Source: Dehalococcoidia bacterium (GTDB lineage: Bacteria; Chloroflexota; Dehalococcoidia; Plut-88900). Taken from it: 64,000 nt of DNA. The notes under the pieces were generated by a model. That model was not told the origin of the DNA and did no database searches. It saw nothing but the letters and a program-made list of their open reading frames with translations. Location: the NCBI GenBank assembly GCA_965207225.1, contig CBDBLV010000004.1, positions 352,001 to 416,000 on the forward strand, given 5' to 3'. This document shows positions 21,375 through 53,397 of this stretch, piece after piece. Each line of letters opens with the position of its first letter. The first letter of the stretch is position 1. The position numbers were made by a program, and so were the translations under genes.

Positions 21375-21418
21375 GGTTAGGCGCTCGTCGGGGGGGCCGG
21401 TGAAGCATCGGGGGTTTA

Positions 21419-22028
21419 TTCAGTTGTGGGGTCTCGGTTTTCGTTTTGATTGTTCTGTCGGGTTTTGGGTCGGCGATGGAAGGTCCGGGACTCAGTTTCA
21501 GGGGGCGGGAGGCCAGCCTGGTTCAGCCCCGTGTTCCTGTGTCACATGGCAGACAAACGAGGGGTTCTCGCCTGAGGGCGTCTCTACCACCAGTTTCTCA
21601 GTTTTCCCGACCCACTCGGAGGGGTGGGTGGGTGTTTTCTCGCTGCCGTCGCTGGGTTTATGGGAATCTCCGAGGGGAACGACGGGGGAGATTTTTCCAA
21701 GGGCGTAATTGCCCGAGGTTTTTCGGCAGGGCTCCTAAGTGAGGAGCGTGCCGCTTAATGTTGTGGACCTTCCATCGCCTGGATGGATGGGGAAGGGGCA
21801 CGGGACCCTTGGGTTGAGGAGATGGCGCCCCCGACTTCTCGGGGGCAGGCTTTTCGCTTGTGCCACAACCTGCCGTCCTCGCAAGGGGGGGCGATTGGCC
21901 GGTCGCCTCCCTATGGGAGGGGAGAGGTCTTGGGATGGGCTAGGGCGTTGAGTCCTCTTGGGTCTCGGGGGCTTCCCTTAGGTTTTTGGTTCCTCCTTTG
22001 ATGATGTGACTTAGTGTTCGATCAGACG
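21419..22028 (-). ncRNA. Candidate large structured ncRNA, copy 1 (conserved 5' part, stem-enclosed 278-nt insert, conserved tail)
   Basis: Colinear similarity to 51837-52586; 15-bp IR 21472-21486/21765-21779; upstream promoter; no credible ORF. Confidence 0.5.
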
Positions 22029-22034
22029 CAGGGT

Positions 22035-22063
22035 ATGATAGTACCATCGGACAGCTGTGTCAA
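22035..22063 (-). promoter_or_regulatory. Sigma70 promoter of ncRNA copy 1
   Basis: TTGACA-17-TATCAT. Confidence 0.65.
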
Positions 22064-22080
22064 GAGCAAATGTGCGGCTT

Positions 22081-22251
22081 TTGGGGGAATATCCCCCAGC
22101 CCCCCAAGGGAACCCTCTCCCCCTTGGTCCCCCTCTCCCCCTCGAGGGACTCGGGGCAGGCTCTTAGGGCCTTTAAGGGAGAGGGGGAAAGAAGAACAGA
22201 GGCCCACGTGGGCGCGCTGCACCCACGTGGGCCTCTAGTTCAGTACTGGGG
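22081..22251. repeat. Multi-hairpin repeat module, copy 1
   Basis: Matches 52638-52785 and 52867-52982. Confidence 0.85.
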
Positions 22252-22307
22252 AGGAAGGGGATGGCTCGGTTTGGGGGACATGCAAGTCTTAGCGTGGGTG
22301 GCGGGCA

Positions 22308-50893: not shown

Positions 50894-51730
50894 TCATGCC
50901 GTCTTAGGAGGTGGGCCCGGGGCGCGGGGAGCCTCCGGCGTCTGGCGCAACAGCAGATAGGCGCCGACGACCGCTACTGCAATCAGGGTCAAGAGGGCGA
51001 TAACGTGGGCCTGCTGCAGGGAGCCTATCCTCGCGGGGTCGTCACGGGTGAACTGGACGAGGAACCGGATGGCGGAGTATCCGGCCAGGTAGATAAGCAT
51101 GACCATTCCGTCGGGCCTGACGCGACCCAGGAGTTTCATGATTACGAAGAAGAGCAGGACGTCGGCGACCATTTCGTAGGCGACGGACGGGTGATAGCCA
51201 AGCTCTGCGCCTGACGCCGACTGAGGCACGGCCGGTCTGCCGGTGTTCAGCCCCGGCCAGCTCGGGTGGGTGTGGACCCAGCCCCAGGGAAGGCTGGTGG
51301 TGGTGCTGAAATGCTCACCGTTGATGACATCGCCAACGCGGCCTATGGTCTGGGCCACGAGCATCATAGGGGCGGTGATGTCGGCGAGCTTGCCGACGGA
51401 CTGCTTGTTGAGTATGGCCCAGGCAACACCCGTGACCGTCCCGCCGAGGAGCGCCCCCCAGAGCCCGACACCACCGTTCCAGATGAAGAAGATGTCGGCG
51501 GGGTTGTTTCGGTAGAAGTGCCAGGCGTCGAAGACGTGGACCAGCCGGGCCCCGACCACTCCGCCGGGCACGGCCCAGGCAGCGCAGGAATAGACTACCT
51601 GCTGGTCCATGCCCCGATATCGGGCCAATCTTGCAGTGCCGAAAACGGCAAATGCCACGCCGATGGCGGTGAATATGCCGTGCCAGGAGAGTCCCCCTAC
51701 CAGGTAGGGGTCCATGCTGATTTCAAGCAT
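50894..51730 (-). CDS. lgt: Prolipoprotein diacylglyceryl transferase
   Basis: GARLVHV, W.GG...G, GRVGDVINGE, HPSVAYE, RF. Confidence 0.9.
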   Translation of the reverse strand: MLEISMDPYLVGGLSWHGIFTAIGVAFAVFGTARLARYRGMDQQVVYSCAAWAVPGGVVGARLVHVFDAWHFYRNNPADIFFIWNGGVGLWGALLGGTVTGVAWAILNKQSVGKLADITAPMMLVAQTIGRVGDVINGEHFSTTTSLPWGWVHTHPSWPGLNTGRPAVPQSASGAELGYHPSVAYEMVADVLLFFVIMKLLGRVRPDGMVMLIYLAGYSAIRFLVQFTRDDPARIGSLQQAHVIALLTLIAVAVVGAYLLLRQTPEAPRAPGPPPKTA

Positions 51731-51836
51731 TCATGTTTCCTATGCCCTGTGTTTCCACATCCAGTTTAGATGCACCGAAGAATCGGGGTCAATCCGGTGT
51801 ACTCGTCCGGTGGACTGGGGGCGCAGCGGAGCTTTG

Positions 51837-52586
51837 TTCAGTTGTGGGGTGTTGGGTTTGTCTGTTGGGTTTTTGGGTCGGCGATGGAAGACGCCCTCTT
51901 GCCCTCAAACTGGCTTGCACTCTTCATTACGGGTGTTCCGGCTGTTGGGGGACCTTTAGAGCAGGCCCCGCCTGAGAGGGAGGGACTTGCAGCCGGCCGT
52001 GCCTTTTTGCTCGATTGTATTCACGGACCGGTCCGGGTCAGGACGTCCGCCAGAGACTCCTCTTTGGGCCGTATGCGCCAATGGGCACGACGGGGCCAGT
52101 GATCCAGCTGTGGCCCCACAGCCTATCTAATGATGTCCATGTTTGCCGGAGCTCTCAGGAGCGAAGTCTCCGGCGCCCCCGCGCACATTGCGCATCCTTA
52201 GCAAGAGCAGACCTATTTGGAGACGATTCTCCTCCGGGGGCAAAGGGTCCGCTGCATACCTCCTAATTAGTCACCCCCGCTGCTAAACTCCGTTGTCGGG
52301 AGAGGGGTGGGAGTAGAAAGCCAGGGCGTCTTTCCATCGCCTGGGGGACAGGGAAGGGACACGGAACCCAGTGGGATGAGGAGATGGCGTCCCCGACTTC
52401 TCGGGGATGACGTATTCGCTTGTGCCGCAACCTTCCTGCCTCGCAAGGGGGGCGATTGGCCGGTCGCCCCTACAAGAGAGGGGAGAGGTCTTGGGATGGG
52501 CTAGGGCGTTGAGTCCTCGGTGTCGGGTCTCGGGGGCTTCCCTGGGTTTTTGGGTTCCTCCTTAAGGTGGTGTCGGGTCTAGACTT
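51837..52586 (-). ncRNA. Candidate large structured ncRNA, copy 2 (425-nt insert)
   Basis: Colinear with 21419-22028; IR 51880-51897/52323-52341 with one bulge. Confidence 0.5.
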
Positions 52587-52592
52587 AGAACA

Positions 52593-52621
52593 AATATAAA
52601 GCTCAAACGTTTGCATGTCAA
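52593..52621 (-). promoter_or_regulatory. Sigma70 promoter of ncRNA copy 2
   Basis: TTGACA-17-TATATT. Confidence 0.65.
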
Positions 52622-52637
52622 GGGGTAGTGTCACGTT

Positions 52638-52982
52638 TTGGGGGGAATATCCCCCGGTCCCCCAAGGAAACCCTCACCCCCTTGATCCCCCTCTCCCTTA
52701 GGGCCTTTAAGGGAGAGGGGGAAAGAAGAACAGAGGCAGACGTGGGTGCGTTGCACCCACGTCTGCCTCTAGTTCAATACTGGGGACAATGGGGGGAAAC
52801 TTCTGGTCCAGGCGGAGGTGAAGGATGCAGGAAAGGGGAGGAGACGCCGCCCGACCCAACGGGGAGAACCCTCACCCTCTTGATCCCCCTCTCCCTTAGG
52901 TCATTAAGGGAGGGGGGAGGAAAAAACAGAGGGAAGCGCCTGCGCCATGGCGCAGGCGCTTCCCTCTAGTTTGGCACTGGGG
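52638..52982. repeat. Multi-hairpin repeat module, copies 2 and 3
   Basis: tccccctctcccttagg...ttaaggga...aacagagg-[palindrome]-cctctagtt...actgggg twice. Confidence 0.85.
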
Positions 52983-52999
52983 GATGGATGGAACCCCAT

Positions 53000-53228
53000 C
53001 CCAGATTCCTCGCGGGGCTTCGGAATGACAGGGGAGAAGGGGGTGCGACTTTTGCAGGGCTGACGAGGCCGATTGGCAAGGGGTGGGCCGCCCCCCGCTC
53101 ATACTTCGAGGGCCTCAGCATGAGCGGCCCCACCGCCCCGGGCGACCCGCCGGTCGCCCCTACACGGGGAAAGAGGACCCTTCTACACCACCAAGCAGGA
53201 TGGATTCCGGCTCGGGGCCGGGATGACG
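53000..53228. repeat. Cluster of REP-like palindromes of three families
   Basis: 53000-53030, 53095-53127, 53139-53163, 53199-53228. Confidence 0.8.
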
Positions 53229-53397
53229 GAAAAGGGGGCGGGGATAGATCACCCTACTTCTTGTGGACGGGCCAGGGATGGGAAGGGGAGGGGGGGTGGG
53301 GATGACGGGAGAGGGACCGGAGCCCTTTTAGCGTCCTACAGAGCGTTATGTTAAACTTATTTCGAACTATTCCAAAATCTTGTAGGAGAGTGGAAGG

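Follow-up and report, generated by a model that had tools for sequence, protein, structure and literature searches.

The region considered here (positions 51837-52621) lies upstream of lgt, in the same orientation as that gene, within a 64,000-nucleotide window from a Dehalococcoidia bacterium (assembly GCA_965207225.1, contig CBDBLV010000004.1, positions 352,001 to 416,000 of the forward strand). Coordinates are positions in this window, the whole stretch of DNA that was analysed, and features of the element described below are on its minus strand; G000 denotes the window's own genome, and G001 to G008 the other genomes of the genus. A preliminary description had treated the region as copy 2 of a two-copy RNA in which a conserved scaffold carries an insert unrelated to that of copy 1 (window 21380-22270). 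The two-copy picture is not borne out: a BLAST search of the scaffold against the 4.03-Mb genome G000 yielded 61 matches, which resolve into 41 complete units. The insert of copy 1 itself occurs 14 times in G000 at 90-100%; the insert of copy 2 is unique there, save for one weak match in another unit, and is multicopy in relatives. Copy 2 extends well beyond the flagged region, with limits at approximately 51798-53274. In our interpretation, copy 2 is a non-autonomous, transposon-like element that encodes no protein and has a putative RNA role, and the flagged region is its transcribed core; we place the probability of this reading at roughly 0.6.

Copies at unrelated loci share defined ends, T[G/A/T]ATCCCGTTCACATAGAG ... 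CGAACGAGTACA (that is, 5'-T[G/A/T]ATCCCG...GAGTACA-3'); in alignments between such loci, the exact match starts at T(G/A/T)ATCCCGTTCACATAGAG and ceases at ...CGAACGAGTACA. TG...CA ends are typical of DDE transposases. The terminal inverted repeats are imperfect and approximately 30 nt long: when the 40 nt at the left end were aligned with the reverse complement of the 40 nt at the right end, the local score was 11, as compared with a shuffle mean of 5.6, and 0 of 1000 shuffles reached the observed value. The left-end motif was located at 28 loci (20 of them added on the strength of the motif), and both ends were recovered in 22. The 5-mers flanking these 22 copies match at all five positions in 12 and at four of five in 4; in shifted registers, none of the 22 is perfect, and among cross-locus pairs the figure is 2.6%. 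The 22 loci collapse to 13 independent sites, at 8 of which the duplication is perfect in at least one genome.

The preliminary description had proposed comparing the lgt interval in relatives for empty sites and target-site duplications, and this check was decisive. In G004, the lgt site is empty (...GGGCGGA/TTGACC..., with slashes marking the junctions), whereas the filled site in G003 reads ...GGGCGGA/TGATCCCGTTCACATAGAG...CAAGCACA/GCGGA/TTGACC...; a single GCGGA precedes TTGACC in the former, and GCGGA stands on both sides of the element in the latter. In its inverted repeats, its duplication of fixed length, the empty site in a relative, and the lack of an internal transposase, the element resembles miniature inverted-repeat transposable elements (MITEs), although its clean copies (739-902 nt) exceed the usual MITE size of under ~0.6 kb. 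Queries of Pfam and PHROGs with 11 open reading frames (ORFs) of copies 1 and 2 returned no match, and no transposase gene was found inside. Weak scaffold matches in two 364-aa frames were considered as a possible parent gene and rejected, as they represent sequence of the repetitive extragenic palindromic (REP) type.

The position of the insertions relative to neighboring genes is constrained as well. The right end stands one duplication (5 bp) upstream of the -35 box of the resident gene, in one orientation only. At 8 of the 13 sites the right duplication is followed by TTG, in most cases with a -10-like hexamer after another 16-18 nt; additionally, all five true copies of a long tail variant in G000 stop 2-3 nt before a promoter (score of at least 8/12), as compared with 1.7% of random positions. 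A Pfam-verified gene in the same orientation starts within 500 nt of 34 of the 41 copies (binomial p = 1.3e-5), and the genes so placed include uvrA, recA, gyrB, nusA, leuS, glnS, def, lgt, rpsO, folD, ribF, mnmA, moaA, and katG. At lgt, the gene's own promoter proposed in the preliminary description (TTGACC-18-TAAACT, 9/12) is confirmed and is kept in all nine genomes of the genus.

This gene context bears on the idea that copy 2 is a leader or riboswitch-like regulator specific to lgt, or the gene for a 14-codon peptide. The unit does lie upstream of lgt in the same orientation, a consensus scan found no terminator-like site between the copy 2 promoter and lgt, and the 14-codon mini-ORF reported earlier (MQRTLCPRRRIVSK, directly after AGGAGGT, in the arrangement AGGAGG-T-ATG) is present in copy 2. 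However, the mini-ORF is not conserved: of 14 relatives, 2 have ACG in place of its ATG start and 8 lack the ORF altogether, so that it is lost or absent in 10 of the 14 homologs, and 116 of 122 indel runs have lengths that would shift the reading frame. With the same modules present before 34 unrelated genes, three insert classes at lgt in close relatives, two relatives without an element body at this locus, and an lgt gene that keeps its own promoter, an lgt-specific role is scarcely credible.

The internal anatomy could be parsed in 38 of the 41 G000 copies, and in all 38 the parts follow the same order: a promoter block, the motif AAGGAGGAACC(C)AAAAACCCAGGGAAGCCC, domain 1 (the scaffold), domain 2 (the insert), and a C/A-rich tail (see Table 1 for copy 2). 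Direct reading and a consensus scan (11/12) confirm the promoter TTGACA-17-TATATT of copy 2; the 1.8 kb scanned contains three promoter-like sites, with 0.5 expected from shuffles. Across the family, the promoter blocks are of three unrelated sequence types (18, 12, and 8 copies), whose promoters read TTGACA-17-TATCAT, TTGACT-16-TAAACT, and TTGACA-17-TATATT. Every parsed copy has a sigma-70-type promoter that scores at least 9/12 and lies 30-37 nt before AGGAGG, and the retention of near-consensus hexamers at a fixed distance in three unrelated blocks (38/38) supports the earlier view of a promoter-driven unit. An 8-bp palindrome, GTTCGAAC or GTCTAGAC, lies 7-8 nt past the -10 box in all three promoter types (38 copies) and could be a shared operator or a dimerization site at the RNA 5' end; GTTCGATCGAAC is an extended form of GTTCGAAC. 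The AAGGAGG motif of the element has no start codon.

Domain 1 occurs in four types and is closed by CAGGGAAG/CTTCCCTG; in copy 2, the reported scaffold with its AAGGAGG start is confirmed, at 84% identity to copy 1 (window 21766-22000). Domain 2 occurs in twelve classes of 179-519 nt, closed by GGCGATGGA.../...TCCATCGCC. The copy 2 insert has the reported length of 425 nt and contains both of the hairpins described; BLAST finds no similarity between it and insert 1 at E<=1e-3. Its closing stem, in which GGCGATGGAAAGACGCCCT pairs with AGGGCGTCTTCCATCGCC, is likewise confirmed and is included in the minimum-free-energy fold of the 749-nt unit, the fold check that had been proposed for it; copy 1 has the same outer 10-11 bp, and the inner pairs are different on each arm with complementarity preserved. 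The closing stem is stable (-28 to -40 kcal/mol) in 37 of the 38 copies and decayed in one. It comes in two types (GGAAGGTCC in 26 copies, GGAAAGACGC.. in 12) that travel with different insert classes, and the co-variation earlier described between copies 1 and 2 reflects these two types rather than point-by-point compensation within one lineage; the proposal of a long-range helix around an exchangeable insert is supported by the folds, the stem survey, and the alignment. Taken together, the features confirmed in copy 2 far exceed what chance would give. Copy 2 combines promoter block P3, domain 1 type D1.1, and domain 2 class D2.8, and such modules assort freely among loci.

The 90 nt after the 3' arm have a mean composition of A.35, C.40, G.145, and T.105 (n = 41), as compared with.197/.302/.305/.197 (A/C/G/T) for the genome. 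A Rho gene is present in G000 (Rho_RNA_bind, 106.6 bits), and the tail has the characteristics of a rut-like site, being C-rich, G-poor, and unstructured over ~70-90 nt in a genome that encodes Rho. In 8 of the 41 copies, the tail runs directly into a terminator-like hairpin unit. Such units form a family of the form CCCCAGTAnnnAACTAGAGG - variable stem - CCTCTGTTyTT, with more than 200 genomic matches, including the two in the left arm of copy 2 (Table 1) and one upstream of copy 1 (22163-22260); their stems are wholly different between copies yet complementary, and resemble intrinsic terminators.

Table 1. Features of copy 2 and its surroundings, in order of window position
Feature	Position	Strand	Remarks
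lgt	50894..51730	-	gene downstream of the element, same orientation; Pfam LGT, 1e-49
Resident lgt promoter, TTGACC-18-TAAACT, outside the element	51763..51792	-	also kept in G004 and G007, without element body
Right copy of the 5-bp target-site duplication, CCGGA	51793..51797	-	lgt -35 box directly after
Right terminal inverted repeat ("distal tail"), ending ...CCGGACGAGTACA	51798..51837	-	limit of cross-locus similarity, and inverted-repeat test
C/A-rich, G-poor, unstructured tail, candidate Rho loading site	51838..51879	-	composition of 41 copies
3' arm of the domain 2 closing stem (AGGGCGTCTTCCATCGCC)	51880..51897	-	direct reading and fold
Domain 2 interior ("insert"), class B1 = D2.8, singleton in G000	51898..52322	-	
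5' arm of the domain 2 closing stem (GGCGATGGAAAGACGCCCT)	52323..52341	-	direct reading and fold
Domain 1 ("scaffold", type D1.1)	52342..52563	-	start motif AAGGAGGAACCCAAAAACCCAGGGAAGCCC at 52563-52534; own closing helix CAGGGAAG/CTTCCCTG
Palindrome GTCTAGAC	52577..52584	-	8 nt past the -10 box, at or close to the predicted start of transcription
Promoter inside the element (block P3), TTGACA-17-TATATT	52593..52621	-	consensus scan
Short repeats nested in the left arm	52625..53239	-	>200 genomic matches among them; absent from the same element in G002, G003, and G006
Two terminator-like hairpin units, left arm	52731-52771, 52927-52968	-	
REP-like palindromic repeats CCCCTCTCCC..GGGAGAGGGG	within 52625..53239	-	nested in the left arm
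Decayed left terminal inverted repeat (TGGCCCGTCCACAAGAAGTAGGGTGATCTATCCCC)	53240..53274	-	aligns with the G002/G003 left end TG(A/G)TCCCGTTCACATAGAGGGGTGACATATCCCC

The lgt and def loci of related genomes show how these parts are exchanged. An element lies upstream of lgt in G000, G001, G002, G003 (at two lgt loci, a and b), G005, G006, and G008; in G007 all that remains is a hairpin unit with the distal tail, and in G004 the site has nothing. In the priA-def interval, an element is present in eight of the nine genomes, again with a variable domain 2 class, and G004 has only a tail remnant. The sites without a body (lgt in G007, def in G004) have nothing but the distal tail beside the resident promoter, which suggests that these remnants are internal deletions rather than sites that were never occupied. 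The insertion occupies the same nucleotide at lgt in 7 of the 8 relatives, from which we infer that it is old.

Class B1 inserts are found at lgt in G000, G002, G003a, and G006; G008 carries a second class there, 91% identical to a G000 copy at another locus, and G005 and G003b a third. The lgt elements of G000 and G008 end in the same locus-specific distal tail, yet their promoter blocks and their domain 2 classes are not the same, and replacement is therefore partial and internal to the element. Comparison with the first 400 kb of G008 placed all 15 examined elements at loci that also bear an element in G000; however, the domain 2 of the orthologous locus is the best match in only 1 of 9 G008-G000 pairs, and mean identity is 87% for orthologs as compared with 92.7% for G000 paralogs. 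Class swaps of domain 2 occur at lgt, e10, e23, and e37. Promoter blocks, domain 1 types, and domain 2 types are all reassorted among loci, with breakpoints inside the element, and small hairpins of the REP type have been inserted in domains 1 and 2 and in the left arm, where approximately 600 nt of nested hairpin and REP-type repeats separate the copy 2 left end from its promoter. Among DNA contigs compared with copy 2, only one tracks lgt and the tail to 51886 and then diverges, and a single joint, at 51894/52320, was seen. The modules may have been swapped by ectopic recombination between the conserved junctions.

The internal sequence is also well kept. Identity to G000 at fourfold-degenerate sites of lgt is.81 in G008,.62 in G005,.49 in G007, and.34-.36 in G002, G003, and G006. 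The copy 2 insert, by comparison, has identities of 93% in G005, 91% in G007, and 90% in G002, and of 83-84% with the lgt-locus copies of G002, G003, and G006; conservation of the internal sequence thus far exceeds the neutral rate. Such conservation may reflect selection, or continued conversion from conserved copies. Because it so far exceeds neutral expectation, the internal parts would matter either to the host or to the spread of the element itself. RNAalifold applied to 14 class B1 copies predicts 102 pairs, with 98.3% of cells paired. Compensatory changes number 8 pairs and 21 cells, as compared with 4.5 and 8.2 in shuffles (values reached by 2/500 and 0/500, respectively), and a score of 0.091 compares with 0.011-0.027 in slid controls.

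These patterns could be read as those of a family of host RNA genes, in which the folded RNA acts in trans (as a scaffold, a sponge, or a component of a particle) and transposition accounts only for its historical spread. An insert identity of 83-93% against fourfold values of 34-62%, covariation above shuffles, intact promoters (38/38) and closing stems (37/38), and a palindrome at the expected transcription start common to three promoter types would all follow from such a role, and the 8 of 41 copies with terminator-like hairpins, together with a Rho-type C-rich tail in all, have the appearance of self-contained transcription units. However, twelve nearly or entirely unrelated insert classes and four scaffold types are interchangeable at one locus, which is hard to reconcile with a single RNA function; strict orientation toward genes and contact with the -35 box are not needed for action in trans; and Rfam has no match. 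We regard a host RNA family as possible but on balance unlikely.

The same body of evidence can be turned toward purely selfish or neutral DNA, whose hairpins and stems would be features of the DNA and whose transcription would be incidental. Counts of G-U and A-C mismatches (32 and 24) give no RNA-strand signal, and the antisense folds as well; hairpins of the REP type demonstrably insert into domains 1 and 2 and the left arm; the genome contains more than 200 related short palindromes; and gene conversion among 40 copies could maintain similarity without benefit to the host. Yet a transposon needs only its ends, and here three independent promoter blocks keep near-consensus hexamers in every parsed copy (38/38). 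Insert identity stays at 90% between genomes that are saturated at fourfold sites, the copy 2 insert, near-unique in its own genome, is no pile of generic short repeats, and a search for a Y1 (REP-associated) transposase found none in G000, which is 92% complete. An account in terms of selfish DNA alone appears distinctly improbable.

The reading of the region as the core of a non-autonomous transposon-like element implies an enzyme supplied from elsewhere, and candidates were sought among integrase-type (rve) genes, of which there are 29 matches in G002 and 22 in G003, most of them outside the comparison of ends. An IS481-like element (rve and LZ_Tnp_IS481; ends TGTATAGACCGGGGA) was rejected as a partner on account of its different ends, as was, for the same reason, a 1.27-kb rve-type insertion sequence inside a G002 copy. 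The former is present in two 100% identical copies (G000:C1:38900-40800 and G000:C4:457300-459000), and its location within the loop of a CCCCTCTCCCTCAGGGCC...GGCCCTGAGGGAGAGGGG palindrome suggests that it targets that repeat. The latter (G002 C1:659000-661600, ~359-1632) has 42-nt inverted ends TGGTTACCGGGAG... and lies between the left end of the copy and the -35 box. Two further types were compared as well, and no autonomous partner emerged from the search.

Movement could in principle also proceed through RNA, with a host reverse transcriptase copying a near-full-length transcript from the internal promoter, an integrase-type enzyme inserting the product, and template switching accounting for the swaps. 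TG...CA ends and 5-bp duplications are what integrase-type enzymes produce, the promoter lies just inside the left end, G000 has four reverse-transcriptase genes and its relatives many rve genes, and ACCCAAAAACC is present twice in copy 2, after the 5' motif and after domain 2. However, the left end would be missing from the transcript, and nothing was seen that could restore it; no reverse transcriptase linked to the element is known, and homologous recombination is the simpler account of the swaps. We know of no such bacterial element described, and this route is highly improbable.

Several observations weigh against our preferred reading of a transposon-like element with an RNA role. Regarding movement, 6 of the 22 copies match at three or fewer of the five duplication positions; the exact left-end motif is absent from the G000 copies (a genome search gave chance matches only); and the left end of copy 2 is decayed, with 42 nt (53275-53316) between it and the flank shared with G004. 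The search for an autonomous element ending in the same way found none, the three rve-type insertion sequences compared having other ends, and independent, site-specific insertions that hit one nucleotide repeatedly could give the appearance of an old insertion shared at lgt. Regarding transcription, a recognizable promoter lies between tail and start codon in only 13 of 34 copies, and since 8 of 41 tails are followed by a terminator-like hairpin, a role as a leader cannot hold for all copies. Regarding RNA structure, the fold of the whole copy 2 unit has a z-score of only -1.44, pairs predicted on both strands contain 32 G-U and 24 A-C mismatches, and in 5 of 7 module sets the antisense folds at least as well; the pairing could accordingly reflect selection at the level of DNA or of the other strand. 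The 42-nt piece itself is C-rich (TCCCTCTCCCGTCATCCCC...).

If the region is the core of such an element, firing of the internal promoter would produce a highly paired, non-coding RNA of ~700 nt, which would either be ended by Rho loading on the C-rich tail or read into lgt. In that case the element would serve as a portable second promoter that brings a structured leader with it, and could sit before essential genes without silencing them. In a bolder version, the transposon "reads" promoters, adds a second promoter and a modular RNA to each target, and has been kept in some 40 copies, ahead of housekeeping and stress genes, as a shared regulatory layer. Recognition might then be of -35-like DNA, or of promoter-bound sigma factor or RNA polymerase, by a TnsB- or IS1202-like enzyme; domain cassettes would be traded among loci much like the cassettes of integrons; and, as the same kind of palindrome stands at all expected transcription starts, a single factor could control all copies together. 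We consider this extension tentative and rather unlikely.

The family, with some forty copies in each genome, belongs to one group of Dehalococcoidia. It is present in all eight other genomes of the genus and in none of three genomes from other genera of the same family, and one weak match was found among 29 genomes of other families of the class. Searches of phage, plasmid, and viral contig collections returned no match to the element; a degenerate 17-nt pattern scan of genome contigs gave mostly chance matches; and Rfam has no match inside 51837-52621 even at E<=10, gathering thresholds recovering two tRNAs elsewhere in the window. Literature searches returned no description of this element family.

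Two further arrangements in G000 are related to it. A second family of seven copies (C3:167328, C3:255807, C5:1005080, C5:1189888, C5:1330718, C5:1737119, and C2:179536) has the same closing stem (GGCGATGGAAGGTCC / GGACCTTCCATCGCC) with a different 3' flank (TAC...); it contains part of insert 1 and sits in long stop-free frames that are non-coding in appearance. Upstream of uvrA, a copy (G000:C1:66910-67043 and C1:69676-70082) is apparently split by ~2.6 kb of other DNA, with the promoter and the first part of domain 1 on one side and, on the other, the last part of that domain followed by domain 2 and the tail.

For a bacterial mobile element, precise and orientation-specific insertion at the -35 boxes of unrelated genes would be an unusual rule of targeting, and would offer a natural system in which to study the recognition of promoters as DNA targets. 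The element also shows how a transposon can come to precede essential genes (recA, gyrB, nusA, tRNA synthetases, def, lgt) without killing its host: the resident promoter is left intact, and that of the element is added. RNA domains that are conserved far above the neutral rate and yet swapped point to a function for the host or for the element. With its ends and duplications defined, the family can be searched for in other genomes and is amenable to transposition and reporter assays.

Parallels can be drawn with several known systems. The structured RNAs OLE, GOLLD, ROOL, and raiA are, like this element, several hundred nucleotides long, with hairpin-rich domains closed by helices; they are, however, single-copy and of one conserved architecture, whereas the element occurs as 40 mosaic copies with transposon ends. 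The BIMEs of Escherichia coli and the BOX elements of pneumococci share its modular, interchangeable sub-units, intergenic location, and stable hairpins, but are much smaller, with as a rule no promoter of their own and no defined transposon ends (a comparison by description only). Correia elements of Neisseria and other promoter-bearing MITEs are similar in being protein-less and non-autonomous, with inverted-repeat ends, a target-site duplication, and many intergenic copies, and they too carry functional promoters that affect neighboring genes. Correia elements are 100-155 bp long and duplicate TA, and we know of no precise targeting of -35 boxes among them. The element, unlike these, is 740-900 nt long (1.5 kb with nested repeats), has a 5-bp duplication and a fixed orientation at -35 boxes, and is modular at its core, where two domains, each closed by a helix, come in classes that can be exchanged.

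Correia, ERIC, and REPIN elements have been named as mobile elements that harbor promoters (PMC3575422). The same work defines putative mobile promoters as highly similar sequences before unrelated genes that are not in Rfam (Matus-Garcia, Nijveen, and van Passel; PMC3575422). Before unrelated genes, copies of the element are at least 80% identical over 50 nt or more, and so belong among them by that definition; putative mobile promoters are, however, defined by similarity alone, with no mechanism of movement, whereas here ends, duplications, an empty site, and a target rule are defined. The mode of insertion can be compared with that of the IS1202 family, whose ISAjo2 type is described as having 5-bp duplications, imperfect inverted repeats, and TG(T)...ACA ends, and as inserting with one orientation, a fixed few nucleotides away from the binding site of a protein (PMC10132070). 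The element agrees with the IS1202 type in its duplication, ACA-3' end, fixed orientation, and fixed distance, and differs in a 5' end of TGA/TAA/TTA rather than TGT; no TnsB-like transposase came to light, no search having been aimed at one. Elements of the ISAjo2 type are autonomous, 1.5 kb in length, encode a TnsB-like transposase, and target pdif/dif (XerC) sites, whereas the element described here is protein-less and inserts at the upstream edge of the -35 box.

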